Assembly: GCF_900215655.1 (NCBI RefSeq)
Contig: NZ_OBEN01000007.1
Coordinates: 4,243-68,242, forward strand
DNA: 64,000 nucleotides
Reading direction: 5' to 3'
DNA from: Hydrogenobacter hydrogenophilus
GTDB lineage: Bacteria; Aquificota; Aquificia; Aquificales; Aquificaceae
Below, one piece after another: positions 13,266 to 27,109 of this stretch; within the stretch, counting starts at the first letter, position 1, and each line of letters starts with the position of its first letter. Under the pieces are notes generated by a model. It was not told the DNA's origin and ran no database searches. It saw nothing but the letters and a program-made list of their open reading frames with translations. Made by a program: the position numbers and the translations under genes.

Positions 13266-14137
13266 AACTAACATTACCAAAGCTAAAACTTCCCACTCTG
13301 AGAAAAACCAAGGTTTCTCTATCTGTGCAAATAACGGATAGAGTGCTCAGAATGTTAGACCTAAATGAGGAGAAAAAGCCAATTTTTGATTTAGAAGTTC
13401 GCTGGGAAGGTAAAAGCGAAAGCGAAAAACTCAGCATATTAAAAACTTATGTGGAAAGATACAACTTAAAAGACAGAGCTGTAATATCCTGCCTACCTGT
13501 TAACGACGGCCTTTTAAAGTTTTACAAATACCCTGCCACCATGAGCCAGAAAGACCTTAAACACGCCATAGATTGGGCTGTTAAAAGAGAGCTTTCTATG
13601 ATAAAAGAGGGTACCCTGCACGACTACTTTGTGCTTGAAAGGGAAAAAGATGCTAAAAATGTTGTCATGCTTTTAGTGCTTGCAAGGGAAGAAGCGGTGA
13701 ACAATCTGAAAAAGCTCATAGAATCCGCCGGTATGAGACTGAAAATACTTGATTACGAAGTTATAACCATAATAAACTATGGACTTTATAACAAAGTAGC
13801 TATTCCTTTCTCCGTACTTTACATAGACTACGGTTATGTTTTGCTGGTAACCTATTCGCCTTTGAATGTAGCTTACTTCGTGACACCTTGGGACTATACG
13901 GAATACCTCAAGACGAAAGACGAACACTACTTGGAAAATTTCTTTGCAGAGGTAAGAAACATCTTAATTATCAATGATCTAACTAATATCTACATAGCAG
14001 GACCCATCCTTTCTGAGGAAGAACTCCTTACGCGCATACTTGAAAACCTACCCATACTTGGTCTTCTTGATATAGAAGGTTTAAAACCTAACTTTTTTAT
14101 TCCGTACACACTTAGTCTAAGAGGTATGGAGGGATGA
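13262..14137 (+). CDS. pilM: Type IV pilus assembly protein PilM-like (short actin-like)
   Basis: 291 aa cytoplasmic protein heading a five-gene cluster that ends in a secretin. ATGA overlap with the ppsA stop. Confidence 0.6.
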   Translation: MKLTLPKLKLPTLRKTKVSLSVQITDRVLRMLDLNEEKKPIFDLEVRWEGKSESEKLSILKTYVERYNLKDRAVISCLPVNDGLLKFYKYPATMSQKDLKHAIDWAVKRELSMIKEGTLHDYFVLEREKDAKNVVMLLVLAREEAVNNLKKLIESAGMRLKILDYEVITIINYGLYNKVAIPFSVLYIDYGYVLLVTYSPLNVAYFVTPWDYTEYLKTKDEHYLENFFAEVRNILIINDLTNIYIAGPILSEEELLTRILENLPILGLLDIEGLKPNFFIPYTLSLRGMEG

Positions 14138-14790
14138 TAAAGATAAACCTTGTAAGAAAGAAGGAGGAGAAAGAATTAAAGCCCACAGCGAGGAGAGTAC
14201 CACAGATAGCTCTTCCCACCCCAAAAGAAAATGCTATTTACTATCTGTCAGTCATCTTATGGCTGAGCTTTGTGTTAGCACTGCTTTATTATCTCAAGCT
14301 TCGCTCAGACATGGAGAATCTTAGAAAACAGCTGGACGAACTTAATGCACAGAAGGTGCAATTGCAAGCAAAGGCAAAGAAGTTCGCTGATGAGAAAAAA
14401 AACATAGAAAAAAACATAGCGGACCTTGAGAACAAAATAAAGGACATAGATAAAAGCAAAGATATAATAGTAGGGCTTAAATCTTACTATTCGCCTTTCA
14501 ACAACACTCTTTTCTTTCATGTTAAATCAGTACCATCAGTTTCTTGGATATCTTCTTATAAAGAGAGCTTGGATATTAACACCTTACTCATAAAGGCAGA
14601 ACTGGAACTTCAATCTCTTGATTACTACGGAATAAGTAATTACACCAAAAGGCTCGCATCATTATCAAAAGCGATAGAAGTATCAAGTATAGAAAGAAAG
14701 ACAAACCAGTACGGATTTGAATACTATAGCGCAAAACTTTCCACAGCAAAGACACTACACGGAGGGAAAGGGAATGCGGAAAATCAATGA
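14134..14790 (+). CDS. pilN: PilN-like bitopic protein
   Basis: Short cytoplasmic N-terminus, one TM helix, periplasmic coiled coil. Position after pilM. Confidence 0.6.
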   Translation: MIKINLVRKKEEKELKPTARRVPQIALPTPKENAIYYLSVILWLSFVLALLYYLKLRSDMENLRKQLDELNAQKVQLQAKAKKFADEKKNIEKNIADLENKIKDIDKSKDIIVGLKSYYSPFNNTLFFHVKSVPSVSWISSYKESLDINTLLIKAELELQSLDYYGISNYTKRLASLSKAIEVSSIERKTNQYGFEYYSAKLSTAKTLHGGKGNAENQ

Positions 14791-15466
14791 ACTTCCCCAG
14801 TGGCAGAGAGTGTTTCTCTTTGTGGTAATGCCCATTATCCTTATCATTTTTCTTTACTTTCTATTTTTCCAACCTACAAAAGACGAAGTAGACAAACTAA
14901 AGGATCAGAAAAAGAACATACAAGCGGAGATAGAAAACTTACAGCGCTCTACAAACCCAAAGCTCCTTGAAAACCTCAAAAAGAAAGAAGAGGAAACAAG
15001 AAGACTTTTAGAAGAGAAGGAGAAAGAGCTTTCCGCCATAGTGGGAACTATACCTACAAAAAAAGATGTAAGCACTATACTCAAAAGCATAGGTCTTTTA
15101 GCAAAGAGGAGTGGACTCACCATAACTAACGTGCAGATACAACCCGGTCAGGAAACTCTTTATGTACTTCAAAGCGTAGGAAATGAAAAATTTGTTAAGG
15201 AACTTCAACCACAGCCACAACAAGCACAACAACAGAAACAACAAGAGAAAAAACAGCAACAGAAACCAGAAGGTGTGAAATACATAAAACAGAACATAAA
15301 GGTGAGCTTTACGGGAACTTACCCAGCTGTTGAAAAATTTATGGAAGGTATGTCAAAGGGTGGTGTTATATCCTACCCTTCAGGTATACAGCTATCTCAG
15401 GCAGAAGCCGGAAAACTACGCGGAGAGCTTGATGTTTTTGTTCTTATAAAGGAGGAGGAAAAATGA
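14774..15466 (+). CDS. pilO: PilO-like bitopic protein with Q-rich linker
   Basis: Start taken at ATG 14774, preceded by GGAGGG. TM helix, coiled coil, QPQPQQAQQQKQQEKKQQQK low-complexity linker, C-terminal globular domain. Confidence 0.55.
   Translation: MRKINELPQWQRVFLFVVMPIILIIFLYFLFFQPTKDEVDKLKDQKKNIQAEIENLQRSTNPKLLENLKKKEEETRRLLEEKEKELSAIVGTIPTKKDVSTILKSIGLLAKRSGLTITNVQIQPGQETLYVLQSVGNEKFVKELQPQPQQAQQQKQQEKKQQQKPEGVKYIKQNIKVSFTGTYPAVEKFMEGMSKGGVISYPSGIQLSQAEAGKLRGELDVFVLIKEEEK
15207..15270 (+). repeat. CAA/CAG-rich low-complexity tract encoding a Gln/Lys linker in PilO
   Basis: ccacagccacaacaagcacaacaacagaaacaacaagagaaaaaacagcaacagaaa. Confidence 0.7.
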
Positions 15467-15681
15467 GGAATCTACTTTTACTGGCGTTGGTAAGCGTATC
15501 CTTTTCGCAGAAAGCCTTTGAAAGCATGGAAGGTGTGGTGGGTTATATAGTTATTGAAAAACACGGAAAAACAGAAAACTATGTAGTTGTTGAGGAGAAA
15601 GACGGAAAGGTAAAAACTATCAGAGTGGAGCAAAGCCCATCGCAGTTTCTAAAAAAGACTGAAGAAGGAGGGAAGAAATGA
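15463..15681 (+). CDS. pilP: PilP-like small periplasmic protein
   Basis: 72 aa with a signal peptide, immediately before the secretin gene. Start overlaps the pilO stop. Confidence 0.4.
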   Translation: MRNLLLLALVSVSFSQKAFESMEGVVGYIVIEKHGKTENYVVVEEKDGKVKTIRVEQSPSQFLKKTEEGGKK

Positions 15682-17444
15682 AAAAGGCACTTATGTCAAT
15701 GCTTCTCTTGCTGAGCTTGTCTTTGGCACAAACCATAAAGGAGATGAAGTTTGAAAATGTAAAACTGGAAACAGTGCTAAAAGCTTTGTCTCAGGTTGCT
15801 GATATGAACGTCATCTTTGACCCTCAAGTATCCCAAGAAGTATCCAAAACCGTTAGCATAGCCATATACAAGCCAGTGCCTGTTGGAGAAGCTATGAACA
15901 TAATACTCAAGGAGTACGGACTTATAGCAGTACCTATAGACAAGAAAGTTTATAGAATAACCAAAGCTGGAGAGATAAGTATAAGCCTTTCTGGACTTGA
16001 TGACAGTCAAATAGAGAAGTTTGTAAAGTTTCTAAAGCCAAGAGTAAGCCCCTCTGCGGAAATAGTCATAGACAAAACCCTCAAGACGGTTTACATAAGA
16101 GATGAAGAACGCAACATAAAGAAGCTTGAGCCCATACTCAAGGACTATGCTAAGATAGTGGAAAAAGTAGCCCCTGCAGAAGAACGCATCACAAGAGTTT
16201 TTTATCTTAAAAACATATCCTTAGACGAAGCGGAAAGACTTTTAAGTGCCTATAAAAAGCCAGATACAGTAATCACTAAAGTGCAGAGTTTTTCAGCTCT
16301 TGTGATAACAGACAGTCCCAAGCAGATGGAAAAGTATCAGGAAGTGCTTAAAAACTTTCTCACCATGACACCTGCGGAAAGAAGACCCATAACCAAGATC
16401 TTCTATCTTAAGTACATAAGCCCGGACGAGTTCATAAAGATGATAGAACCCCTCAGGTCGGAAGCTGGCACCATATTAAGCGGTGGAGCTTTAAAGGTAC
16501 AAGCACCCATACAACAGCCACAAATGGCACAATCTCAACAACAACAAACTCCTCCTTCACCCATACTCAAAGAGTTCAACGCTGTAATGATTACAGACTA
16601 TCCAGAAGTTATAGAGAAGATAAGAGAAAGATTTAAAGATTACATAAGTGATTCACCCGTTCAAGTGAAGATAGAAGCAAGGATAATTGAGATAAGAGAG
16701 GAAGCCTTAAGGGAGCTGGGTATAAATTGGAATGTTTTGCTTTCTCAGGCAAGAGTACCCCAGTTTTGGAGCGGTGGGGCAGGACAAGGAGCCAATATAG
16801 GCACTCCGCCACCTCTTGGTAATATATACGTACCACCAGACACAGGAGTAGGTGTGCGCTCTCCTATATACTACACGCCAGGGCTTTCTCCCACGCCGGG
16901 TGGTATATTCACCTTTGCCTTCCAGAAGGGAATTTTAAATGCCCTAAACCTAAGACTATCCGCTCTTGAACGCATATCCTTGGCAAAAAACATAGCCAAA
17001 CCTACAGTAGTGACCATCAACGCTCAAAAAGCAACCATAAAACAGGGAGTACAGATACCTTATCAAACCACTGTGATTGCAGGAGGTGCTCAAGCTGTCA
17101 ACATACAGTTTAAAGATGTGGTACTTCAGCTTGATGTCACGCCGGTTGTATCACCAGACGGTAGGATACTCTTAGACATAAACCTCAAGAGGGACACACC
17201 AGGACAGCAAACTCCCCAGGGACCTGCTATAAACACCAAAGAAGCCTCCACAAAAGTGGTAGTCAACGATGGAGACACCTTAGTTATAGGAGGCATAATA
17301 GACAATCAAGAATCTAAGACTAACGAAGGGATTCCGGGTCTTGTGAGAGTGCCCATACTCAAGTGGGTCTTTGGACAGGAAAGGTTGCAAAACACCCAGT
17401 CCGAGCTTCTCATATTCCTAACTCCAGTACTTATAAGAGAATGA
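15678..17444 (+). CDS. pilQ: Type IV pilus secretin PilQ
   Basis: 588 aa. Signal peptide, N0/N1-like domains, Q-rich linker, C-terminal secretin domain with the GIPGL...LIFLTPVLI signature. Confidence 0.9.
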   Translation: MKKALMSMLLLLSLSLAQTIKEMKFENVKLETVLKALSQVADMNVIFDPQVSQEVSKTVSIAIYKPVPVGEAMNIILKEYGLIAVPIDKKVYRITKAGEISISLSGLDDSQIEKFVKFLKPRVSPSAEIVIDKTLKTVYIRDEERNIKKLEPILKDYAKIVEKVAPAEERITRVFYLKNISLDEAERLLSAYKKPDTVITKVQSFSALVITDSPKQMEKYQEVLKNFLTMTPAERRPITKIFYLKYISPDEFIKMIEPLRSEAGTILSGGALKVQAPIQQPQMAQSQQQQTPPSPILKEFNAVMITDYPEVIEKIRERFKDYISDSPVQVKIEARIIEIREEALRELGINWNVLLSQARVPQFWSGGAGQGANIGTPPPLGNIYVPPDTGVGVRSPIYYTPGLSPTPGGIFTFAFQKGILNALNLRLSALERISLAKNIAKPTVVTINAQKATIKQGVQIPYQTTVIAGGAQAVNIQFKDVVLQLDVTPVVSPDGRILLDINLKRDTPGQQTPQGPAINTKEASTKVVVNDGDTLVIGGIIDNQESKTNEGIPGLVRVPILKWVFGQERLQNTQSELLIFLTPVLIRE

Positions 17445-18091
17445 GTGATAAGGTAAGGATAAAGATAATCTCTTTAAGAGAGGAGGAAAACATAGAAAAG
17501 CTCGTTGAAGCCTTAGAAAACCTTGGAGTAAGCATATCAGAATTTTTCAGGTCCGTAAGTGCAGGTAAGCCTTTTGTTTTTGAGGCAGAAAGAGAAGCAT
17601 ACAGAAGATGGAAAAATACTCTTGACAAGCTTTGCTACTACCAAGAAGAACCCCATGTAGAAAGCTTATCCCCTTTAGGTTTTACCGCAGTGGCTTTGTT
17701 GGATACTTTTTTCGTTTTTTCACTCTCTGAATGGTTTTCAAAAAGTTTAAACTTGGAAGGTGTAGCATCTGGGTTTTTCGCATCTCAGATGCTTTTGTGG
17801 TCCTTTATCTCCATCTTTAAGCTCTTTATTGCCTTCCTTTTGTACGCAGGGTTTGGACAGAATCTTGAGACAACACCCGTGGGATACCTTTTGAAGATAA
17901 GGGTAAGCAACAAAGATACAAAAGTATTTATTTCCTTTATGCTCATACCCATAGCAGGCATTTTGCTGGTTAGCTCGCCTTTCGGAAGTTTTGCAAAGCT
18001 TTTTGGCTTATTTCTCTTTGCCTTCTTTGTAGGTGGCTGTCTTTCTGGATTACTAACTTCTCATTACCGATTGCGTATAGAAAGAGCATAA
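17441..18091 (+). CDS. Polytopic membrane protein, hypothetical (last gene of the pilMNOPQ operon)
   Basis: ATGA overlap with the pilQ stop. C-terminal half has 4 predicted TM helices. Confidence 0.4.
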   Translation: MSDKVRIKIISLREEENIEKLVEALENLGVSISEFFRSVSAGKPFVFEAEREAYRRWKNTLDKLCYYQEEPHVESLSPLGFTAVALLDTFFVFSLSEWFSKSLNLEGVASGFFASQMLLWSFISIFKLFIAFLLYAGFGQNLETTPVGYLLKIRVSNKDTKVFISFMLIPIAGILLVSSPFGSFAKLFGLFLFAFFVGGCLSGLLTSHYRLRIERA

Positions 18092-19227
18092 AGGGGTAAA
18101 AAGCATAAATTTAGGAAAAATATGTAAAACATGTACCACCAAACACTCCCAAAAGGGAGGATTAAAAATCCTGTGTAATAAACAAAAAGATGCAAATAAG
18201 GCAACCAGAGCATAATACCTAAAGCGGTAAGGAAATAAATGAAGACCAATGTTAAAGTTAAAAAGAACGCTGTAAAAAGATAAAAAGGCAGGTAAGTAAA
18301 AGCTGGAAGGAACTTTTCAGAGAACAGAAACACAAAAAGATATTTACCTACAAAGATTAAAGAAACTTCAAAAAATATAAATGCGGAAAACACCAAAAAC
18401 AGTACTCTTTTTAGAAAATTTATCATTAGCTTTCCCTTCTGTGCGTACATTACGAATTTGGGAAAGAACACAGTCATAAATGTTAGAATAAGCCATACGA
18501 ACACCTTACCTACCAAGGACACTGAGGCATAAAGCCCTGCAACAGAAGGTTCAAAAATGCGTCTTATAAAAAGATCGTCTGCATACACAAAAAAGCCTAC
18601 AGGGGAGGTAAAAAGAGAGGCTTTAATAAGACCCAAAAGGGATACTCTTTTGGGTTTTGTAAAAAACACTCCGTTTACACCAAAAAGCATACTAAGAGCG
18701 GAAAAAGTGCTAACGATGAACGAGAAGAGCACACCAATAATCCCTAAATTTGCTAAGAAGACCACGGTCAGGAGCCTTACGCTCTGTTCAAAAACCACGG
18801 AAAGAGCAAGCAGGCTAAACCTTTCTAATGATTGAAGATAAGCTCTTTCTATGACAAGCATCTGTTGAAGAAACCACACACCGGCTACTGCCCAAAAATA
18901 CTGAGCCTTTGATATCCTTAAAAAATCTTTTATAGGCTCAGCAAATATTATTCCAAGTATAAAAATAAAAAATCCCAGGAATAAACCTAAAAATCTCATA
19001 TAAGAAAGTGCACTTTTCGTTTCTTGCCAATTCCTTAGTAGTTCTTTAACCACGGGAGTAGCGAGTAGGTTTATGAAGTTTCCTACGCTTAGCATCAGGG
19101 CATAAATAACCATAAACTCACCGTATCCATGCACTCCCAAATGCCTACTTACAAAAAAGTGAAAGACATAGCCTACAGCGTTGGCATACAAAAAGGCAAA
19201 GCTTACAAAAGAAAGATTTTTTATCAT
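18064..19227 (-). CDS. Polysaccharide/oligosaccharide flippase (Wzx/MOP-like)
   Basis: About 12 predicted TM helices and roughly 390 aa. Start taken at ATG 19227, which forms an ATGA overlap with the upstream GT4 stop. Confidence 0.5.
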   Translation of the reverse strand: MIKNLSFVSFAFLYANAVGYVFHFFVSRHLGVHGYGEFMVIYALMLSVGNFINLLATPVVKELLRNWQETKSALSYMRFLGLFLGFFIFILGIIFAEPIKDFLRISKAQYFWAVAGVWFLQQMLVIERAYLQSLERFSLLALSVVFEQSVRLLTVVFLANLGIIGVLFSFIVSTFSALSMLFGVNGVFFTKPKRVSLLGLIKASLFTSPVGFFVYADDLFIRRIFEPSVAGLYASVSLVGKVFVWLILTFMTVFFPKFVMYAQKGKLMINFLKRVLFLVFSAFIFFEVSLIFVGKYLFVFLFSEKFLPAFTYLPFYLFTAFFLTLTLVFIYFLTALGIMLWLPYLHLFVYYTGFLILPFGSVWWYMFYIFFLNLCFLPLYALSIRNR

Positions 19228-20282
19228 GCTAAACTCTTTATATACTCCTCGTAGCGCTCGGATATCTTGTCCCAAGTGTGTTCTTTGGCAAACTCTACGC
19301 CTTTTTTGCCCATCTCAAGCACCAGATCATCTCTTTCGTACAAGAACTTTATTTTTTCCGTAAGGTCCTTAGGGTCATCTTTGCGAAAGCTAACACCAAA
19401 CCCTGCCTGCACCACATAAGAGAACACGGGAATGTCGCTAACAATCACAGGTTTTCCGCAGGACGCAGACTCAAGAGCTACTATCCCCTGTCCTTCGTAC
19501 CTTGAAGGCATGACTAAAAATTTTGAACCTTTGATGAAATTAACCTTTTCCTCTCCCGTTAGTCTTCCCAAATACTCCATATTTTTACAACCATCTACCA
19601 TTTTTAAAAACTTCTCTCTGTCTTTTCCATCACCAGCTATCTTAAATTTTATGTGTTTTAACTCCTTTATAGCCTTTGCTAAAAGATCCAAGCCTTTTTG
19701 AGTTATATCAAGCCTGCCAAGGTAAGCAACATAATGTCCCAACTCAAAACCATTCTCAACTTTATCAACACCGCTGGGTATTACCTGAGCTTTGATCTTG
19801 TAAGCTCTGTTTAAAAATTCAGAAAGGGAAATTATGTGTTTGTATCTTTTTGGGTAAAACCTTTCCACTAAGAAAAAGGGTAATCCAAGAAGGAAATACT
19901 TTTTTAAGATGTTTATCCCTTCGTAGTTTTGGAGTTGGAGAACCACAGGCTTTTTATCTTGATACCTGTATGCGAAAATGGGATTCCAAGGTGCAAAGTC
20001 TTCTACTATTAGGTCGTAATCTTTGTAATGTTTGCCCAAAAAACTTTTGGCTCTTAAAGCGTAAGAGAAGGTACTAATAATATAGTTTTTGTCAGAACCT
20101 AAAAACAAAAACTTTATGCTTTCTTTTTCGCCTTCTTGAGCCTTTGGATAATTTCCGCTTACCACTGTTATTTGATAGCCTTTTTTGGCAAGCCTTTTGT
20201 ATATTTCAAAAGCTCTTACCGCTCCACCGCCACCTACCCAAGGGTTATTTATGTGATCGTAGATGAAGTGAATTATCCTCAT
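19224..20282 (-). CDS. Glycosyltransferase family 4 (GT-B)
   Basis: EGQGIVALESASCGKPVIVSD (EX7E region). Start at ATG 20282 directly after the methyltransferase stop. Confidence 0.8.
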   Translation of the reverse strand: MRIIHFIYDHINNPWVGGGGAVRAFEIYKRLAKKGYQITVVSGNYPKAQEGEKESIKFLFLGSDKNYIISTFSYALRAKSFLGKHYKDYDLIVEDFAPWNPIFAYRYQDKKPVVLQLQNYEGINILKKYFLLGLPFFLVERFYPKRYKHIISLSEFLNRAYKIKAQVIPSGVDKVENGFELGHYVAYLGRLDITQKGLDLLAKAIKELKHIKFKIAGDGKDREKFLKMVDGCKNMEYLGRLTGEEKVNFIKGSKFLVMPSRYEGQGIVALESASCGKPVIVSDIPVFSYVVQAGFGVSFRKDDPKDLTEKIKFLYERDDLVLEMGKKGVEFAKEHTWDKISERYEEYIKSLA

Positions 20283-21013
20283 GGTTTTTTCGCTATTATA
20301 TAAACGAATCTTCCAAATATTTCGTAGGGTATAAAGGAAAAATCGTTGGCTTTGGGTGTAAGAAGCTGAAGCAGAGGATAGATGGGTAGAAGAGGCAGGT
20401 ATTCCCACCATCTTAAAACCTTCACTTGATGGACCTCAAAACCGCACATCTTGGCAAGGATCTTTAGACTCTTTTTGGTCCAAGGTCTTATGTGAGTTGG
20501 GTCTGAGTAGAAGTTATAGCTTCCTTGGCAGAAAAGGGAAGTGTAATAGTCAGTAGCACAGTAGAAGTATCCGTTTTTTTTCAGGACCCTGAGGCTTTCC
20601 AAGAAGAGCTTTTGAGGATTTCTTAGGTGTTCCAGCACAAAGGTAGAAATGACCACATCAAAGCTTTCTTCCTCAAAGGGAAGATTCTGCTCCTCTATGT
20701 CGCATGCAGAAAAGCTAACATAATCTGGCAGTAAAGAGTTTTTCTCAAGGTCTACTCCAAAGAGCTCTGCAGAAGGGTTGAGGAACTTCCTTATAAAGTA
20801 TAGTGCCTCTCCCGTTCCACAGCCTACATCAAGGATCTTAGAAGCGGTCTTTATGTTGGGTATACTGCTTAACTTCTTCACGGATATGTTGGTAAGCCTG
20901 TAGTAGAGCTTTTCTGTGATGGCGTACTTTTCAAAAAGCTTCCTAACAAAGGGTCTTAGTCCTATCTCTCTAATGCTTCCAAGATACTCCTGATAACCTT
21001 TATGTTTTTGCAA
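20279..21013 (-). CDS. Class I SAM-dependent methyltransferase
   Basis: Motif I VLDVGCGTGE, motif II/III spacing. Confidence 0.75.
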   Translation of the reverse strand: MQKHKGYQEYLGSIREIGLRPFVRKLFEKYAITEKLYYRLTNISVKKLSSIPNIKTASKILDVGCGTGEALYFIRKFLNPSAELFGVDLEKNSLLPDYVSFSACDIEEQNLPFEEESFDVVISTFVLEHLRNPQKLFLESLRVLKKNGYFYCATDYYTSLFCQGSYNFYSDPTHIRPWTKKSLKILAKMCGFEVHQVKVLRWWEYLPLLPIYPLLQLLTPKANDFSFIPYEIFGRFVYIIAKKP

Positions 21014-21707
21014 GCTTAAGCCTCCACACCATAATTGCCGCTTCTAAGGCTATTTTTTTACTCATCTTTGAAGCACCACTGTTTCTTTCGTAAAATATTA
21101 TGGGTATCTCGCAAACTCTAAAGCCAAGTTTGTAAGTCTTGTAGAACATCTCTATTTGGAAAGCATAACCGTTGGACTTTATAGCCTTTAGGTCTATTTT
21201 CTCTAGTACCTCCCTTTTGTAGCATCTGTATCCACTGGTGATGTCTGTAAACTGTCTTACACCAAGTATAGTAGTTGCATAGAAGTTTGCAAACTTAGAT
21301 ATGAGAAGCCTTTTAAAGTCCCAACCTACTACACTTATAGTCCCTTTTGTGTATCTTGAACCAATCACAAGGTCGCACCCTTCTTCTACCTTTTCTACAA
21401 ACCTTGGTATGTCTGAAGGATCGTGAGAGAGGTCCGCATCCATCTCAAAGAAAAGATCGTAGTCTCTCTCAAGTCCCCACTTGAAGCCCTCCACATACGC
21501 AGTACCAAGTCCAAGCTTTGTATGTCTTTTTAGGAGATTCACTCTCTGGGTCTTCTCCATCCACCTTTGGACTCTCTCCTGTGTGCCATCCTGGGAATTG
21601 TCATCTACCACGAGCACATCTACAAAAGGATGTTGTAAAACCCTCTCAAGTACCTTATCTATGTTGTCCGCTTCGTTATAAGTGGGTAGGACTACCAGCG
21701 CTCTCAT
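21000..21707 (-). CDS. GT2 polyprenyl-phosphate sugar synthase (Dpm1/GtrB/ArnC-like)
   Basis: VVLPTYNEADNI, VVDDNSQDGT, DADLSHDP (the DxD region). Start taken at ATG 21707, which makes an ATGA overlap with the upstream GT4 stop. Confidence 0.8.
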   Translation of the reverse strand: MRALVVLPTYNEADNIDKVLERVLQHPFVDVLVVDDNSQDGTQERVQRWMEKTQRVNLLKRHTKLGLGTAYVEGFKWGLERDYDLFFEMDADLSHDPSDIPRFVEKVEEGCDLVIGSRYTKGTISVVGWDFKRLLISKFANFYATTILGVRQFTDITSGYRCYKREVLEKIDLKAIKSNGYAFQIEMFYKTYKLGFRVCEIPIIFYERNSGASKMSKKIALEAAIMVWRLKLAKT

Positions 21708-22786
21708 AACAGTCCTCTGTCTTTGAGATAGCTTATAAACTCTGCTTTTGTCTTCTCCCAAGAGAAGTTCCTTGCCCACTCCACAGCGTTTGTGGAGAGT
21801 CTCTTGTAGAGCCCCTTATCTTCCCAAAGCAAGAGGGTTTTTTGTGCCATCTCTTGGTAATCCTTTACCAAAAACCCTGTTGTGCCATCTTTTATGCTGT
21901 CTTTTAAGCCTTGGACCCTGTAGCCTATGGCTGGTGTGCCCACTGCATTGGCTTGGATCACCACCTGAGCCCACCCTTCCCTTATGCTTGGAACCAAAAG
22001 CACATGAGACTCCCTTAGAAGTTGGTACTTTTCTTGACTTTCTATGTACCCTGTAAATACCACACCCTCTACATTTCCGTATTTGTTCTGCAGATAGGGT
22101 CTAAGGGGACCATCGCCTATGACATAAATCTTCGCATCCTTTACCCTTTGCTTGACTATCAGGTAAGCTTTTAGAGCGTCTTCTGGATTTTTGGTTTTTT
22201 TGAGCCTTCCTATGTAAGCCAAAGTCAAACTTTTACTTTTTTCTGAAATACTGGGTTCTATATCAAGACCGTTGTGTATGATGGTGATGTCCCTAAAGCC
22301 TATGCTTCTGAGGTCTTCTGCAGTGGATTCAGACACGGTTATAGTGGGCTTTTTTCTGTATAGTCTCAGAAGGAGTTTCTCCAAGAGTCTGAAAGGATAG
22401 CCCAAAGGTCCCAGCTCTGCGGTCCAAAACTCTTCATAAAGCTGGTGTATAAGCAGGATGGAGTTTTTCAAAAAGAAGGTCGTGTATCCCAAGCCATTGA
22501 ACTCATCCACTATGAGCCAGTCCTTAGGCTTTTTAAGAGCGTACAGAAAGCCATAAAGGTGTGTGGTAAGCTCGTTGCCTTTCCTGATAAACCTTATACC
22601 TTCAAGATGCTCTTCTGCGGATAGTCCTTTGGGTCTTGAGGCAAACCACTCCACCTGCGCGCCTACGCTAATTAGCGCCTTTGCCAGCTCCATTGTATAG
22701 ACCTCCGCCCCACCCTTTTCTGGATGCTTTATGCACCTCCTATTGAGAAAAAGCACCTTCATGCCTTGTAGAGGCTCAGCACCCAC
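21704..22786 (-). CDS. Glycosyltransferase family 4 (GT-B)
   Basis: 360 aa. C-terminal GT1 domain with the E...E motif (PSIREGWAQVVIQANAVGTPAIG). Confidence 0.75.
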   Translation of the reverse strand: MGAEPLQGMKVLFLNRRCIKHPEKGGAEVYTMELAKALISVGAQVEWFASRPKGLSAEEHLEGIRFIRKGNELTTHLYGFLYALKKPKDWLIVDEFNGLGYTTFFLKNSILLIHQLYEEFWTAELGPLGYPFRLLEKLLLRLYRKKPTITVSESTAEDLRSIGFRDITIIHNGLDIEPSISEKSKSLTLAYIGRLKKTKNPEDALKAYLIVKQRVKDAKIYVIGDGPLRPYLQNKYGNVEGVVFTGYIESQEKYQLLRESHVLLVPSIREGWAQVVIQANAVGTPAIGYRVQGLKDSIKDGTTGFLVKDYQEMAQKTLLLWEDKGLYKRLSTNAVEWARNFSWEKTKAEFISYLKDRGLL

Positions 22787-23346
22787 AAAGAAAAGAAGAC
22801 CACAAAGGATAACAAACCTACCCTAAAAGATCTATAAATCATAAAAACTACAGACCCTATCCATCCCAAAAGGGACAGCACCACAAGAATGCTCCAAAAG
22901 ACAGAAGGATACGGGTCATAATCCTGCATGGCTTTTAGGTCTTTGTATATCTGCTGATACTTGTCCTCTGGTGGAAGGTTGTTCTGTATGTAGAGCTCCG
23001 TCTTTAGGAGCACTATGTCTTTGTCTAACTTTTGGAGTTTTTCCGAGTATGGAGTGTATATGCCTCTTATTTGGTATATAGCAGACCTTAGCGTCTCATA
23101 GCAAAAAAGCCTGTGCTCCTTTTCCTTGAGCTTGGGACATAGCTTTTCTATTTTCTCCACCGCTTCTTGGTTGTAAGGACTAAAGGGTACATAATTTAGA
23201 AGTGTCCTCTCGTACATGGATATAGCCATAAGGGGATTTCCAGATACCAAAAGAGCATCACCTTCTCTAATAAGTCTTTTCTGGTTTTGAAAAAGCACAA
23301 ACACAGCGCTCATAACCAAGACAAAGATAACCAACAGCCACTTCAT
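22759..23346 (-). CDS. Membrane protein, hypothetical (N-terminal signal-anchor, two C-terminal TM helices)
   Basis: ATGA overlap with the upstream GT-C gene stop. No recognisable motif. Confidence 0.4.
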   Translation of the reverse strand: MKWLLVIFVLVMSAVFVLFQNQKRLIREGDALLVSGNPLMAISMYERTLLNYVPFSPYNQEAVEKIEKLCPKLKEKEHRLFCYETLRSAIYQIRGIYTPYSEKLQKLDKDIVLLKTELYIQNNLPPEDKYQQIYKDLKAMQDYDPYPSVFWSILVVLSLLGWIGSVVFMIYRSFRVGLLSFVVFFSLWVLSLYKA

Positions 23347-25244
23347 CTTAAGCTTCCCCTTGCCTCCGCAGTGTAAGGGTAATAGATAAACCTCTCCAAT
23401 TTGTTATTTTGCATCACCCTGTTATAAAGGTCTATAAGATTCTTGTTCTCTGGTCCTACCTTTATCTCAAACTCCGCACCGGGATGGCTCTTATCTCCCG
23501 GTCTGTTTACGGACACTCTAAAGGTGTTTCCCATATATCTCACGTCATAATTCAAAAGTCCAGTTTGTTTGCTGACTTCCACTCTGGAAATAAGGTAAGC
23601 AAACATAGGCAGAGAGTAGTTGCAAAGAGTTGCAGAAAACCTATCATCAGTCATGTAGTTGGCGCAGTCTAACATGCTAAGGTTTTCAAGTTCCTCGTAG
23701 CGCAATAACCTCTTTGTCCAAACATTCTCAGGAACTTGTAGGTTTTTGGGAATCAAGGCAAAGGAAAACACCCAAAACTCGTTTTTGAAAAACTCAGCCA
23801 AAGGATTGGGAGGTTTTAAAAACACTATACTGTAAAGCCTTCCAGATGAAGCAAACTCTGCAAAATTACCCTTAAAGAAGCTGGAAAATAGGTAACTGTC
23901 TTTGTAAAGCTTTTGGGGATAGCACCCTCTGGGTATGAGGGTGTTGCTATCTGGTGACAGGTAGTCGTTGGAGCAGATATCCTGCCTGTAGCGTGCCAAG
24001 TACTTAAAGTACCAAGAGCCAAAGGTATGGTTATCTCCGTAAGTTAGGTACAGGCTTCCTACTGGAAGGGAAGAGATGATGCTCTTGGAAATAGAATAAG
24101 CCACATAGTTGTCATTAAAGTTCTGGTCTATAAGCCTATCAAAGACACCCACCAAAGCGTATACAGAAAGAGATGCAGGAAGTGCTACTTTCAAAAGCTC
24201 CGTTCTTTTAAGAAGATCCACCACCCAATAGAGCCCAAGACCACAGAAAAGAGCAAATCCAAAGAGTGCAGGTAGGAAGTACTGATGCGCACCTATGTAC
24301 CATCCATCAGACTTTATGAGAGGAAAAGAGAAGGTCATCTTAGCAAGCAGGAGGGAGTAAGCAAGGAAGAAAAGGCTAAGGTAGATGCCTACCCTTCTTG
24401 AGAACCTAAAAGCCCACAAGATACCCAAAAGGAAAAGGGGAAAAGCGTAAATAGGAAAGTTAGTCTTAAAGATAATAAAAAGGTTTTTCAGCGCGTAGTA
24501 GTAGCCCATTGGGTCTGCAAACAGACCCTTTGCCACCTCCGGAGATGACCCCTGCTGGTAGGGTTTTCTAAGAAACACTTCCCAAAAGCTATTTAGGTCA
24601 TAAACTGGATTGGGTACGAACACCCTGTTACCCCTGATGAACATGTGCAGGTTTGCCCAAAAGCCAAGCAAGAAAAAGAAGATGCTAAAGGGTAGGTTTT
24701 TTAGGAATGGTCTAAAATAAAGTATGGAAACATACACAAGGGGTATAACCACAAGAACAGCTGTGTGGTGATTGGCAAGAGAAAGCCCCAACAAGAAGCT
24801 TCCAAGGAAACTAAGCCTTCTGTCATAACCTTCAAGAATGACTTTTAGACCAAAATACAAAAGCAGGGATATTATAAAAAGATTAAGCATGTAGAACTTC
24901 ATAACTACAGACTGTCCCCAGAAGGAGTAAGAGACACCCAAAAGAGCCACAGGGAACAAAGAAACTAAAGCGTTTCCCGTCAAAGTGTGCACAAGTCTAT
25001 AAAGCATATAAAGAGACAGTAAAGAAAACACTACAGATGCTAAAACCATTCTGAAGGGAACGCTTCCTAAGGGTAAAAAGCTAAAAAGCTTTAAAACTTC
25101 CATGTACAGAGGATATCCAGAAGGGTGTGCAAGACCTAAGGTTATAGCTCCTACCGCAAACTCTCCTGCATCCCCCGTATTTATAACCTTGCTGGAAGAG
25201 AAGGTATAAAAAAAGGCAAAAAGAGACAAAAGAAGGAATATCAC
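23343..25244 (-). CDS. GT-C-type polytopic membrane glycosyltransferase (PMT/ArnT/DUF2723-like), candidate pilin O-glycosyltransferase
   Basis: 633 aa. About 11-12 TM helices in the first ~370 aa and a ~260 aa soluble C-terminal domain. GDAGEF acidic motif in the first extracytoplasmic loop. GTG start overlaps the pilA2 stop (GTGA). Confidence 0.65.
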   Translation of the reverse strand: MIFLLLSLFAFFYTFSSSKVINTGDAGEFAVGAITLGLAHPSGYPLYMEVLKLFSFLPLGSVPFRMVLASVVFSLLSLYMLYRLVHTLTGNALVSLFPVALLGVSYSFWGQSVVMKFYMLNLFIISLLLYFGLKVILEGYDRRLSFLGSFLLGLSLANHHTAVLVVIPLVYVSILYFRPFLKNLPFSIFFFLLGFWANLHMFIRGNRVFVPNPVYDLNSFWEVFLRKPYQQGSSPEVAKGLFADPMGYYYALKNLFIIFKTNFPIYAFPLFLLGILWAFRFSRRVGIYLSLFFLAYSLLLAKMTFSFPLIKSDGWYIGAHQYFLPALFGFALFCGLGLYWVVDLLKRTELLKVALPASLSVYALVGVFDRLIDQNFNDNYVAYSISKSIISSLPVGSLYLTYGDNHTFGSWYFKYLARYRQDICSNDYLSPDSNTLIPRGCYPQKLYKDSYLFSSFFKGNFAEFASSGRLYSIVFLKPPNPLAEFFKNEFWVFSFALIPKNLQVPENVWTKRLLRYEELENLSMLDCANYMTDDRFSATLCNYSLPMFAYLISRVEVSKQTGLLNYDVRYMGNTFRVSVNRPGDKSHPGAEFEIKVGPENKNLIDLYNRVMQNNKLERFIYYPYTAEARGSLR

Positions 25245-25636
25245 CTGACGCTACACCTCAGGTTGTTTTCCGAAAACTCGCACACCGCTGTATAGTTGTT
25301 TATTCCTGCAAGCATACCTCTTACAGTACCACTTGCTATACCGTTTGGCGTGCATGTATAGCTTCCATCAAGCAAAACCTCAACATTTCCCATAGCGGTA
25401 TTGACATTGGAGCAATTAGGAAGACCATTGAGGCTGTAAGGTGTAGGAGCTTCTACAAACTTAGAGACGCAATTCGCCATGGCATCTTTGGCACATGCTG
25501 AAGCTATAGAAAGGGCAAAGTTAGCCACCTTAGATTTGTCGCGATACATAAGATAAGAAGGAATAGCCATAGAAGCCAGTATAACCAAAAGAGCTATAAC
25601 TATCAGAAGCTCTACAAGAGTAAAGCCTTTTTTCAT
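25241..25636 (-). CDS. Type IVa pilin (second pilin paralog)
   Basis: MKKG|FTLVELLIVIALLVILASMAIPSY class III signal with Glu at +5. C-terminal disulfide pair (AVCEF...RCSVR). The ORF-track TTG start at 25654 lies inside the upstream stem-loop, so the ATG at 25636 is preferred. Confidence 0.8.
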   Translation of the reverse strand: MKKGFTLVELLIVIALLVILASMAIPSYLMYRDKSKVANFALSIASACAKDAMANCVSKFVEAPTPYSLNGLPNCSNVNTAMGNVEVLLDGSYTCTPNGIASGTVRGMLAGINNYTAVCEFSENNLRCSVR

Positions 25637-25643
25637 GGCAAAA

Positions 25644-25661
25644 GCCCCCCACAAAGGGGGC
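25644..25661 (-). terminator. GC-rich stem-loop (GCCCCC-6 nt loop-GGGGGC) between the two pilin genes, followed on the - strand by TTTTGCCATG. Partial terminator/attenuator.
   Basis: Read directly: 25644 GCCCCCC ACAAA GGGGGC 25661. A T4 tract and the pilA2 ATG follow immediately on the - strand. Confidence 0.55.
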
Positions 25662-25679
25662 TAAGAGCTTCAGCTTAGA

Positions 25680-26120
25680 TTAACCCTGTATGGTGCACTT
25701 GACGCTTTGTTTGTCGTAAGTGCAAACCGCAGTGTAGTCAGTAGCGGTATCAAGTGTAGCAGTCGCACTGCTGTTAGATAAAGTACCGTCGGGATTGCAG
25801 GTACCGGGAGTAACTGACAGCGTTACTTGTCCACCACCAGTTGTTATGGTCGTTGTAGAACAGTTAGCCAGCTGAGTTGTTGGAGGTGCACCGCTTGCGT
25901 TTTCTGTACACCACGCTACCATGTCTAACATACAACCTCTGGCTATGGGTTCTGCGTAGGAGCTTACTTTGGCTTTCCTTTGGTACTTTAGGTACTGCGG
26001 TATTGCCAAGGATGCCAGTATGGCTATGATGGCTATGACGATGAGTAGCTCAATGAGGGTGAAACCCCTTGAGCTGTTCATCCTCGCGGACCTGCTCGTG
26101 GCTTGATAGAGCTGTCTCAT
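25680..26120 (-). CDS. pilA: Type IVa major pilin with Ser/Thr-rich C-terminal region
   Basis: ...RG|[24 protein letters not shown] prepilin signal. C-terminal [19 protein letters not shown]...[14 protein letters not shown] and a disulfide pair (AVCTY...KCTIQG). Start 26120 has an AAGGAGGG SD, giving a 19-aa leader. The alternative ATG at 26081 gives a 6-aa leader. Confidence 0.8.
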
Positions 26121-26200: not shown

Positions 26201-26431
26201 TCACTTATCCTCCTTGTGTGGAACTTCAAAAACCTTATAAAGAAGCTGTCTTATCTCTCTTATGTCTTGTTCCAGTCTGTCTAGTCTCCTGTCCACATCC
26301 TGCCGTAAGTCATCTATACGCTTATTGATATCATCAAAGCGTTTGTTTTGCACATTTGCAATGATCCCCATTAGCACCACATTACCCCCTATTATGCTCG
26401 CTATGATGGTGATAACTTGTATCCATTCCAT
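26201..26431 (-). CDS. Small signal-anchored hendecad-repeat coiled-coil protein, paralog 4 of 4
   Basis: 76 aa. MEWIQ plus a 22-aa hydrophobic helix, NKR(F/I)DD..RIDDLRQDVDRRLDRLEQDI modules, invariant tail REIRQLLYKVFEVPHKEDK. Confidence 0.6.
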   Translation of the reverse strand: MEWIQVITIIASIIGGNVVLMGIIANVQNKRFDDINKRIDDLRQDVDRRLDRLEQDIREIRQLLYKVFEVPHKEDK

Positions 26432-26683
26432 TCACTTTTCCTCCTTGTGTGGCACTTCAAACACCTTATAAAGAAGCTGGCGTATCTCTCTTATGTCTTG
26501 TTCTATCTTATCAAGCCTTCTGTCTATTTCTTGCTCCATCTTGTCCAGTCTTCTATCTATGTCCTGCCTTAGGTCGTCAATCCTTCTGTTTGTGTCATCA
26601 ATCCTTTTGTTAAGTAAGACTACTACTATACTTATAATTCCCACAAAGCTTGCAATGATGGTTATGGTTTGTGTCCAATCCAT
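26432..26683 (-). CDS. Small signal-anchored hendecad-repeat coiled-coil protein, paralog 3 of 4
   Basis: 83 aa. Same architecture with one extra IDRRLDK(M/I)EQ(E/D) module. Confidence 0.6.
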   Translation of the reverse strand: MDWTQTITIIASFVGIISIVVVLLNKRIDDTNRRIDDLRQDIDRRLDKMEQEIDRRLDKIEQDIREIRQLLYKVFEVPHKEEK

Positions 26684-26911
26684 TCACTTATCCTCTTTGT
26701 GAGGTATTTCAAACACCTTGTAAAGTAGCTGTCTTATTTCTCTTAGTTCCTGTCTTATCTCTTTCATGTCTTCCCTTAGGTCATCTATGCGCCTGTTTGT
26801 GTCCTCTATACGCTTATTTGTGTCCTCAATGCGTTTGTTCAAAAGGTTAGCCACTATTCCAATAACAGCTGTTAAGCTGGCTATCACAGTAAGAGCCTGT
26901 ATCCATTCCAT
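26684..26911 (-). CDS. Small signal-anchored hendecad-repeat coiled-coil protein, paralog 2 of 4
   Basis: 75 aa. Same architecture with a variant repeat (RIEDTNKRIEDTNRRIDDLREDMKEIRQELREIRQLL). Confidence 0.6.
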   Translation of the reverse strand: MEWIQALTVIASLTAVIGIVANLLNKRIEDTNKRIEDTNRRIDDLREDMKEIRQELREIRQLLYKVFEIPHKEDK

Positions 26912-27109
26912 TTACTTGTCCTCCTTATGAGGCACTTCAAATATCTTATAAAGAAGCTGTCTTATCTCTCTTATGTCTTGCTCCAATCTATCCAGTCTCC
27001 TGTCCATGTCTTGTCTAAGGTCGTCTATGCGTTTGTTTAACAACTGAGCAACTATTCCAATAACTGCAGTGAGGCTGGCTATTACTGTAAGGGCTTGTAC
27101 CCATTCCAT
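26912..27109 (-). CDS. Small signal-anchored hendecad-repeat coiled-coil protein, paralog 1 of 4 (shortest)
   Basis: 65 aa. First gene of the array. No SD. Preceded by a -35/-10 pair with the -10 ending 8 nt before the ATG. Confidence 0.6.
   Translation of the reverse strand: MEWVQALTVIASLTAVIGIVAQLLNKRIDDLRQDMDRRLDRLEQDIREIRQLLYKIFEVPHKEDK

Follow-up and report, generated by a model that had tools for sequence, protein, structure and literature searches.

A bacterial TMEM260-type (GT117) glycosyltransferase at the centre of a putative pilin glycosylation cassette in Hydrogenobacter hydrogenophilus

Organisation of the locus

The present study concerns a cluster of nine genes within a 64,000-nucleotide stretch of the Hydrogenobacter hydrogenophilus genome (contig NZ_OBEN01000007.1), the whole of which is referred to as “the window”. 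Nine consecutive open reading frames (ORFs) occupy its minus strand from position 26120 to position 18064 and encode, in this order, two type IV pilins (pilA1 and pilA2), a polytopic glycosyltransferase of the GT-C fold (GT-C), a membrane protein of 195 amino acids (p195), a glycosyltransferase of family 4 (GT4a), one of family 2 (GT2), a methyltransferase, a second family-4 glycosyltransferase (GT4b) and a putative Wzx-like flippase. We consider it likely, with a probability of roughly 70 %, that this locus represents a pilin-accessory glycosylation cassette assembled around a bacterial GT-C of the TMEM260 type (CAZy family GT117), and probably an undescribed way of sugar-coating pili. An earlier interpretation made from the nucleotide sequence without database searches (hereafter the sequence-only reading) had proposed an uninterrupted series of nine minus-strand genes leading from pilin to flippase, all of which are indeed present.

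From pilA2 to the flippase gene, the junctions as read from the sequence comprise six overlaps of 4 nt and a single one of 14 nt. The stop codon of pilA2 overlaps the start codon of GT-C within the tetranucleotide GTGA, while ATGA overlaps are found at the GT-C/p195, p195/GT4a, GT4a/GT2, methyltransferase/GT4b and GT4b/flippase junctions. The methyltransferase gene initiates at a TTG preceded by GGAGG and overlaps the end of the GT2 gene by 14 nt. The overlaps listed in the sequence-only reading are hence borne out, with that between p195 and GT4a to be added and with the methyltransferase/GT4b junction turning out to be an ATGA overlap instead of an abutment. The translational coupling of the pilins to GT-C, which had also been put forward, applies to pilA2 but not to pilA1, which is separated from pilA2 by 43 nt harbouring a hairpin.

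For comparison, a family-alignment scan with one genome per species yielded 79 loci (designated by L numbers), whose ORFs, translated in six frames, were searched with the window proteins and with the prepilin motif. Those 34 loci whose GT-C was found with E<1e-40 are referred to as close loci.

Both pilins carry the prepilin N-methylation motif (PF07963). They are the only ORFs in the window to do so, and both are located upstream of GT-C. The candidate major pilin gene pilA1 (25680..26120, minus strand; PF07963 E=1.1e-9) codes for a prepilin of 146 amino acids with a long leader, whose mature form begins with FTLIELL and contains six cysteines; a GGAGG Shine-Dalgarno sequence lies 8 nt ahead of its ATG at 26120. 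The second type IV pilin, encoded by pilA2 (25241..25636, minus strand; PF07963 E=3.2e-7), comprises 131 amino acids counted from the ATG at 25636. Orthologues of pilA1 are situated upstream of GT-C in L001-L008 and L036, and orthologues of pilA2 are likewise present in related loci. Ser and Thr account for 30 of the 127 residues of mature pilA1 (24 %), so that the Ser/Thr richness which the sequence-only reading had taken as the mark of an O-glycan acceptor is real in this protein. It is, however, not distinctive, as the GT-C-adjacent pilins of the various loci contain between 11 and 28 % of these residues, and for this reason we attach little weight to it as an argument for glycosylation.

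The spacer between pilA1 and pilA2 contains a GC-rich hairpin (25637..25662, minus strand) with an 8-bp stem, AGCCCCCU-UUGU-GGGGGGCU, followed by UUUGCC. A consensus scan for intrinsic terminators did not flag this hairpin owing to its short T-run, and with a z-score of -0.14 the folding of the 71-nt region does not reach significance. Yet, a hairpin followed by a T-run is found between the first and the second pilin gene in L001-L005, L020 and L023 as well, with stem sequences differing between loci. Because its position is conserved in spite of different stems, we retain it as an element of the locus and regard it, on the grounds of sequence and fold, as a candidate terminator or attenuator.

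The GT-C enzyme

The GT-C gene (23343..25244, minus strand) encodes a polytopic protein of 633 amino acids. It matches the Pfam family PF11028, “TMEM260-like protein O-mannosyl-transferase” (formerly DUF2723), with E=2e-20 and 73.8 bits, the cut-off being 24.2, and its residues 9-426 are aligned by phmmer with residues 36-463 of the human TMEM260 structure (PDB 9rql_A; E=1.4e-18, 69.5 bits). Homologues of the protein are named “glycosyltransferase family 117 protein” by NCBI. An AlphaFold2 model calculated with 31 family members (mean predicted local distance difference test score, pLDDT, 89.9; predicted template modelling score 0.90) displays the GT-C fold with its polytopic core and a first extracytoplasmic loop containing an acidic residue. 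Accordingly structured proteins in the PDB, as retrieved by Foldseek with a probability of 1.00, are PglB, ArnT, STT3, Pmt4, AftA and ALG9.

In the phmmer alignment, Asp25, His40, Tyr229 and Asp404 of GT-C coincide with Asp52, His67, Tyr267 and Asp441 of TMEM260. Across the alignment of the 31 family members Asp25, His40 and Asp404 are invariant while Tyr229 is conserved to at least 90 %. The cryo-EM study of TMEM260 reports that Asp52 and His67, which form the sugar-recognition motif, Tyr267 within the donor-loading loop and Asp441 are essential, with Asp441 acting as catalytic base in the luminal Rossmann-like domain (bioRxiv 10.64898/2026.03.17.711096). The Pfam match, the similarity to 9rql, the modelled fold and the retained catalytic residues bear out the assignment of the 633-amino-acid protein to the GT-C enzymes of the DUF2723/TMEM260 type as made in the sequence-only reading, and the structural comparison with Pmt and ArnT finds both (Pmt4, ArnT) among the Foldseek neighbours. 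By homology, the enzyme is a candidate protein O-mannosyltransferase.

The C-terminal 250 residues, which are periplasmic, adopt a mixed alpha/beta domain with conserved cysteines in the model. A TPR domain is not detected in GT-C, neither as a Pfam match nor in the modelled C-terminal domain. Other bacterial DUF2723 proteins are annotated by Pfam with fused TPR domains; a C-terminal TPR belongs to the human enzyme and is not a defining trait of the PF11028 family.

One might argue that GT-C decorates lipid A, as does ArnT, or an O-antigen, as do GtrC-type enzymes, and that it lies next to pilin genes because surface structures are regulated together. This would agree with ArnT being among its best structural neighbours and with the fact that systems composed of GT2 and GT-C often modify glycans (PMC11127046). 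We nevertheless deem such a non-protein acceptor highly improbable: the enzyme belongs to the protein O-mannosyltransferase family PF11028 and not to ArnT/PMT_2, the acceptor-activating base Asp441 of TMEM260 is kept as Asp404, and a pilin gene which overlaps the start codon of the enzyme across phyla would be left unexplained.

The acceptor sequon of TMEM260 is Px6Px3Px2GGx3T. The pilins of Aquificaceae and Thermodesulfovibrio with six conserved cysteines (pilA1 of the window, L001-L008, L036) have T-x-G-G-x-V-(T)-L in common, and the Cys-free pilins of Nitrospirota (L013, L019, L024, L028) contain GG-x3-T in a Gly/Ser-rich loop. Both recall the GGx3T core of the sequon. We did not accept these motifs as matches to the sequon, since the spacing differs, the threonine is not invariant and chance matches are to be expected in low-complexity sequence; they are considered a lead only.

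p195, the constant partner of GT-C

The gene following GT-C (22759..23346, minus strand) encodes p195, a membrane protein of an unnamed family which matches a protein of H. hydrogenophilus with 100 % identity. Neither Pfam nor NCBIfam contains a match to this family, of which a profile search of the full library retrieved about 340 cluster representatives. The model of p195 is all-helical (pLDDT 88.4) and consists of an N-terminal transmembrane (TM) helix, five soluble helices (residues 38-142) which form a TPR-like helical-repeat domain of about 110 amino acids, and, at the C-terminus, a pair of TM helices. An invariant signature, YER-x-LLNY-x-P-x-S-x-YN, and two invariant cysteines mark the soluble domain. 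In longer homologues a Lys-rich loop joins the last two TM helices and, following the positive-inside rule, suggests that the helical domain is exposed to the periplasm. A resemblance to the TfpY-like accessory proteins (TfpX/Y/Z, FimB) is not observed, as the one plus two TM helices of p195 and its all-helical model do not show their layout of three N-terminal TM helices and a beta sheet.

Wherever downstream DNA exists, GT-C is immediately followed by a gene for a p195 homologue, which holds for 31 loci according to phmmer and for L029 as judged by eye. This makes p195 the most constant partner of GT-C. The sequence-only reading had correctly described it as an uncharacterised membrane protein of the locus but had undervalued this partnership. 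For TMEM260, binding of the acceptor is reported to require no more than the C-terminal TPR domain (bioRxiv 10.64898/2026.03.17.711096). Since a GT-C subfamily devoid of a TPR always has an adjoining gene for a TPR-like protein, the TPR-like domain modelled for p195 may replace in trans that of TMEM260 and hold the acceptor.

GT2 and the remaining enzymes

The GT2 gene (21000..21707, minus strand) codes for a soluble protein of 235 amino acids, a GT-A enzyme (PF00535) homologous to characterised polyprenyl-phosphate glycosyltransferases and, as we propose, the donor synthase of the cassette. Its best match in the PDB is the dolichol-phosphate mannose (Dol-P-Man) synthase of Pyrococcus furiosus (5mlz; E=2.7e-33, residues 1-230), with ArnC (E=1.8e-9) and the GtrB-like sll0501 (E=6e-6) following at a distance. 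The similarity to 5mlz confirms the designation of GT2 as Dpm1-like. AglJ and PpgS are its best NCBIfam matches, although their scores (84 and 71 bits) fall well short of the respective cut-offs of 325 and 370. Because all equivalog matches remain below their cut-offs, the sugar handled by this Dpm1-like polyprenyl-phosphate hexosyltransferase is not fixed by them.

The two cytoplasmic GT-B glycosyltransferases of family 4, GT4a (21704..22762, minus strand; PF00534/PF13439) and GT4b (19224..20282, minus strand; PF00534), and the class I S-adenosylmethionine (SAM)-dependent methyltransferase (20279..21013, minus strand; PF08241 and related families; TTG start with a GGAGG Shine-Dalgarno sequence) are assigned by Pfam just as the sequence-only reading had it. 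In many loci, the corresponding slot is filled by homologues of GT4a with E ~1e-140 to 1e-150. GT4b homologues are encoded in L001-L004, L016, L017, L022, L027 and L036, and strong homologues of the methyltransferase only in L001-L004, L017 and L080. The last gene (18064..19227, minus strand) encodes a polytopic membrane protein of 387 amino acids which, even at E<=10, is not matched by any Pfam family. PF01943 (Polysacc_synt) is, however, contained in most homologues of the protein (35-91 % identity), the orthologue from H. thermophilus contains PF01943 and PF13440, and several homologues are named oligosaccharide flippase. The flippase assignment draws on these homologues, and we regard the protein as a putative, divergent Wzx/MOP-type flippase of lipid-linked glycans. 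A Pfam scan of the operon revealed no Wzy_C domain.

Conservation of the cassette

In 28 of the 34 close loci, a prepilin ORF is found at a distance of at most 700 bp from GT-C, almost invariably immediately upstream and in the same orientation, in many cases with an overlap. The remaining six comprise four GT-C genes at contig edges without upstream DNA and two, in L010 and L029, for which upstream DNA is available. Within 700 bp of GT-C the density of pilin-motif ORFs amounts to 0.88 per kb compared to 0.02 per kb at distances exceeding 3 kb, i.e. it is enriched 45-fold. Given this enrichment and the fact that the only two pilin-motif ORFs of the window adjoin GT-C, the arrangement of pilin and GT-C genes is far beyond chance, and independent NCBI gene calls agree on it. 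The sequence-only reading had named absence of the locus next to pilins in related genomes as a refutation, but the locus does adjoin pilin genes in several phyla: the enzyme gene lies directly downstream of the pilin gene and is conserved together with it, as is characteristic of a pilin-accessory cassette. The cassette is present in Aquificota, Nitrospirota, Desulfobacterota, Desulfurellales and Methylomirabilota, most hosts being thermophiles and anaerobes. The GT-C copies of Thermodesulfovibrio share 52-55 % sequence identity with that of Hydrogenobacter and are accompanied by matching pilA1 and pilA2, which suggests that pilin and enzymes move as one cassette, with pilin, GT-C and p195 apparently travelling together between phyla.

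Among the distant DUF2723 loci, a pilin is encoded nearby in 7 of 45 (Gammaproteobacteria metagenome-assembled genomes (MAGs) and bacteria of the candidate phyla radiation), corresponding to a roughly 3-fold enrichment. The 38 distant loci without a nearby pilin would be compatible with general O-glycosylation, in which GT-C acts on many periplasmic and surface proteins in the manner of Neisseria PglL or actinobacterial Pmt, the pilin being one abundant substrate among others. Broad-spectrum bacterial systems were indeed first discovered via pilins (PMC9239064; PMC3643930). The pilin gene directly upstream of GT-C in nearly all informative close loci, its apparent travelling with the enzyme between phyla and the high acceptor selectivity of TMEM260 speak against such breadth, which we therefore hold to be quite unlikely.

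A GT2 homologue (E 1e-62 to 1e-150) is encoded within about 2.5 kb in 24 loci by our count. Between p195 and GT2, the slot is taken either by a GT4a homologue or by a GT9 enzyme, the latter being the case in Thermodesulfovibrio, Methylomirabilis and some Nitrospirota. This GT9 enzyme, a member of the heptosyltransferase family, is found in L006-L009, L014, L021, L024 and L081 (e.g. L007 12477-13505; L081 11471-12496), hence lineages may differ in the second sugar of their presumed glycan. The conserved core of the cassette consists of pilin, GT117, p195, one GT-B (GT4 or GT9) and GT2. Methyltransferase, GT4b and flippase vary with lineage, all three occurring in Aquificaceae (L001-L004, L080) and some of them in Nitrospirota. 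Thermodesulfovibrio hydrogeniphilus possesses a five-gene cassette, pilin-GT117-p195-GT9-GT2, from which methyltransferase, GT4b and flippase are missing. The notions of a complete module and of a methylated oligosaccharide, both advanced in the sequence-only reading, are not established in view of this minimal cassette.

Furthermore, the minimal cassette, which ends after GT2, and the absence of methyltransferase, GT4b and flippase from many other loci raise the possibility that the locus is split. GT-C, p195 and GT2 would then add a single hexose to the pilin, while GT4a, methyltransferase, GT4b and the Wzx-like protein would belong to a separate, co-transcribed surface-polysaccharide or lipopolysaccharide pathway. 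This would be in line with the transfer of monosaccharides from monophosphate carriers by all characterised enzymes of the GT117, PMT and ArnT types, and with L029, which encodes GT-C, p195, GT2 and a GtrA-like protein (by eye) and nothing else. Several observations argue to the contrary. Even in the minimal cassette a GT-B gene (GT4 or GT9) is inserted between p195 and GT2, the order pilin-GT-C-p195-GT4a-GT2-GT4b-flippase is found again in another phylum (Desulfobacterales MAG L027), the 4-nt overlaps continue as far as the flippase gene, and the operon contains no initiating phosphoglycosyltransferase, polymerase or ligase as needed by a separate Wzx pathway. We consider a split locus plausible, though less likely than not.

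Some of the loci show peculiarities. In L029 (3-3561, a high-GC MAG), GT-C and a p195-like gene are accompanied by a divergent GT2 and a GtrA-like protein of 151 amino acids (by eye), both encoded divergently upstream; if confirmed, this would be the classical three-component layout within the same enzyme subfamily. In L020 (9911-11810, Thermodesulfovibrio sp. N1), GT-C is split into two overlapping ORFs, probably by a frameshift or as a pseudogene, and is located within a cluster of five pilin-like genes, with GT2 not nearby. Downstream of pilin-GT-C-p195-GT2 in L013 (3976-6802, Nitrospirae MAG) come two genes for B12-binding radical SAM proteins and another GT2, which hints at a different sugar modification (C-methylation?) replacing that by the SAM methyltransferase.

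Neighbouring genes

The genes of pilM, pilN, pilO and the secretin pilQ (13262..17444, plus strand) converge on the cassette. Their synteny is kept in L001-L004, and secretin and PilO matches to Pfam are obtained in the H. thermophilus locus. The pilO-like ORF (14717-15466) and PilQ (15678-17444) contain Gln/Lys-rich low-complexity stretches, QPQPQQAQQQKQQEKKQQQKPE and QQPQMAQSQQQQTPPSP. The ORF at 17441-18091 (plus strand) begins at the end of pilQ, overlaps with its 3' end the convergent flippase gene by 28 bp and encodes a conserved protein of 216 amino acids whose N-terminal half is soluble and whose C-terminal part contains about four TM helices. Syntenic counterparts are present in L001-L004 and L036, and neither a Pfam nor a PDB relative was found. 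We considered and rejected this protein as an ArnE/F-like (SMR) flippase: NCBIfam EbrB was matched with E=0.006, and a PDB profile search with six orthologues retrieved nothing relevant, RodA being the best match (E=0.31). The sequence-only reading had counted the gene as part of the same locus. While it does adjoin the cassette and encodes a membrane protein, it is located on the opposite strand, belongs to the plus-strand pilMNOQ unit, at whose end it stands, and has no demonstrable link to glycosylation.

Directly upstream of pilA1 (26201-27109, minus strand) four paralogous genes are arranged head to tail, coding for 65, 75, 83 and 76 amino acids, with each stop codon directly abutting the next ATG. 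In each product, a TM helix at the N-terminus is combined with a coiled coil in which RIDDLRQD-x-DRRLD-x-LEQDIREIRQLLYKVFEVPHKEDK is repeated. Three ORFs (75, 65 and 72 amino acids) are found at the same place in H. thermophilus (L080 7392-8036).

Proposed mechanism

According to the interpretation as a pilin-accessory glycosylation cassette, GT2 would load polyprenyl phosphate with a hexose at the cytoplasmic face of the membrane. Mannose from GDP-mannose would be the most likely choice, since GT2 is close to Dol-P-Man synthases and GT-C to TMEM260. GT-Bs, methyltransferase and Wzx-like protein would build a short, possibly methylated lipid-linked glycan prior to flipping, which is the least certain sub-step. 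Extension before flipping is suggested by the GT-B present even in the minimal cassette and by the recurrence of the full gene order in a second phylum; it is rendered uncertain by the fact that every characterised GT-C relative transfers a single sugar. If the glycan is extended, GT2 would be the only candidate for an initiating enzyme in the operon, resembling the logic of euryarchaeal dolichol-phosphate (Dol-P)-dependent N-glycosylation. Once the lipid-linked sugar has been moved to the periplasmic face, GT-C would transfer it to Ser or Thr residues of the upstream-encoded pilin(s), within their globular domain in the periplasm, before these are assembled by the neighbouring PilMNOQ machine. 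In this step p195 would serve as obligate membrane partner of GT-C, its periplasmic TPR-like domain probably holding the acceptor in trans. The hairpin following pilA1 would ensure an excess of the major pilin over the enzymes as in the pilin-accessory cassettes of Pseudomonas, where a Rho-independent terminator after the pilin gene is thought to keep accessory expression low (PMC11841053).

A number of points weigh against this mechanism. The GT-C copy of L010 (6904-8175; 423 amino acids), whose periplasmic domain is missing, has no pilin neighbour, and in L029 a full-length GT-C occurs without an adjacent pilin. GT2 is missing nearby in some close loci (L011, L012, L020, L023), and a phmmer search with the putative GtrA-type protein of L029, itself assigned by eye, found no GtrA-type flippase in the window. 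Fusions of GT-C and p195, as looked for in a Rosetta-stone test, are absent from the best 150 of the 340 p195 relatives, all of which are stand-alone proteins of about 200 amino acids. Wzx proteins normally flip diphosphate-linked glycans. To our knowledge, cytoplasmic GT-Bs do not form part of classical three-component systems of GT2 and GT-C, and the characterised relatives of the enzyme (TMEM260, PMT, TMTC, ArnT) all transfer single sugars, so that an oligosaccharide donor would be unusual. Finally, the case for pilin glycosylation is a genomic one, and the adjacency of a pilin gene is no proof of the pilin being the sole acceptor.

A more far-reaching interpretation, which in its entirety appears rather unlikely to us, would see GT117 and p195 as a two-subunit, pilin-specific O-glycosyltransferase, with p195 as a TPR clamp that was later fused to the enzyme in animals. 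A short methylated oligosaccharide, made on polyprenyl monophosphate by GT2 and the GT-Bs and flipped by the Wzx-like protein, would be transferred en bloc, which would make the system a bacterial O-linked counterpart of euryarchaeal Dol-P N-glycosylation. The TMEM260 family would then have had this function ancestrally, and a related strand sequon, Gly-Gly-x(2-3)-Thr, might have gone along with it.

Bacterial homologues of TMEM260 hereby gain a first concrete substrate hypothesis, namely the type IV pilin, and are joined by a defined donor synthase as well as by a novel family of obligatory partner proteins. If correct, the proposal would add a further class of pilin glycosylation machinery to PglL/TfpO and TfpW, offer a simple bacterial system in which to study the enzymology of the human disease gene TMEM260 (SHDRA syndrome) and bear on the origin of eukaryotic O-mannosylation pathways. 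It would also account for the decoration of pili in thermophiles, with consequences for adhesion, stability and phage evasion.

Comparison with known systems

In accordance with the claim that a PMT/DUF2723-like GT-C dedicated to pilin glycosylation is undescribed, none of the matches listed from the openly searchable literature links DUF2723, TMEM260 or GT117 to pili, subscription-only papers being outside the scope of this search. The only paper found there for DUF2723 is the one which identified TMEM260 as an O-mannosyltransferase (PMC10214176). Glycosylation of PilA4 and PilA5 from Thermus was considered as a precedent and dismissed, as the glycans are based on N-acetylhexosamine and no enzyme is named.

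With the three-component systems GtrA/GtrB/GtrC, ArnC/ArnEF/ArnT and Ppm1/Pmt (PMC11127046), the Hydrogenobacter cassette shares the pairing of a Dpm1/GtrB-like GT2 with a GT-C at the outer face of the cytoplasmic membrane. In place of a GtrA or SMR flippase, none of which was found in the window, it encodes a Wzx-like protein. It further differs in the addition of GT-Bs, methyltransferase and p195 and in its acceptor, presumably the pilin.

In the N-glycosylation pathway of Haloferax (AglJ/AglG/AglI/AglE/AglP/AglR/AglB), a Dpm1-like GT2 starts the glycan on a monophosphate carrier and further glycosyltransferases extend it. A SAM methyltransferase modifies the glycan, a Wzx-like protein is implicated in flipping, and a GT-C transfers the glycan to proteins of surface filaments and the S-layer, those resembling type IV pilins among them. 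Although no NCBIfam model matches GT2 better than AglJ, all NCBIfam matches lie far below their cut-offs, hence the resemblance to the euryarchaeal route is an analogy of pathway logic, not membership. The linkage made there by an STT3-type enzyme is an N-linkage, unlike the O-linkage proposed here. PglL, PilO and TfpO resemble the cassette in being pilin-adjacent enzymes which O-glycosylate pilins in the periplasm from a lipid-linked donor. They are, however, Wzy_C/WaaL-like proteins using undecaprenyl-diphosphate oligosaccharides, whereas the Hydrogenobacter enzyme is a GT-C.

The closest homologue of the latter is human TMEM260, a GT117 enzyme of the same Pfam family and the O-mannosyltransferase of IPT domains in the endoplasmic reticulum (PMC10214176). 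That TMEM260 is a protein O-mannosyltransferase became known only in 2023, in a paper whose sole mention of bacteria is that they contain “distant homologs” (PMC10214176). The alignment of the two proteins spans the whole transmembrane GT-C core and extends into the beginning of the luminal domain, with the four key residues kept, and both presumably transfer a hexose from polyprenyl phosphate to Ser/Thr, the donor being supplied by a Dpm1-type synthase. Their overall identity is low, though, and in contrast to TMEM260 the bacterial GT-C is devoid of a fused C-terminal TPR, a separate TPR-like membrane protein being encoded alongside. Its putative acceptor is a type IV pilin instead of an IPT domain.

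With respect to architecture, the closest analogue is the pilA-tfpW-tfpX cassette of Pseudomonas aeruginosa group IV (PMC11841053; bioRxiv 10.1101/2020.04.19.049825). Pilin gene, hairpin (a terminator in Pseudomonas, a candidate one in Hydrogenobacter), polytopic GT-C and a small membrane accessory protein follow one another in the same order, and either cassette is seemingly horizontally mobile together with its pilin. TfpW acts in the periplasm, where it O-glycosylates the pilin with a sugar drawn from polyprenyl phosphate (PMC11841053). TfpX combines three TM helices at its N-terminus with a beta-rich domain in the periplasm, is dispensable for glycosylation and is missing from most species with TfpW (PMC11841053), whereas p195 is all-helical with one plus two TM helices and is always present. 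The decaprenyl-phosphate arabinofuranose donor of TfpW is made by DprE-type enzymes, in place of which the Hydrogenobacter cassette has a Dpm1-like GT2. GT-B, methyltransferase and Wzx genes, all present in the Hydrogenobacter cassette, are absent from that of Pseudomonas. TfpW is an arabinofuranosyltransferase which is not known to be related to PF11028. As TfpW illustrates, GT-C-mediated glycosylation of pilins is not new in principle; what sets the Hydrogenobacter cassette apart is GT117 as its GT-C family, the Dpm1-type donor synthase and the new conserved partner protein p195.

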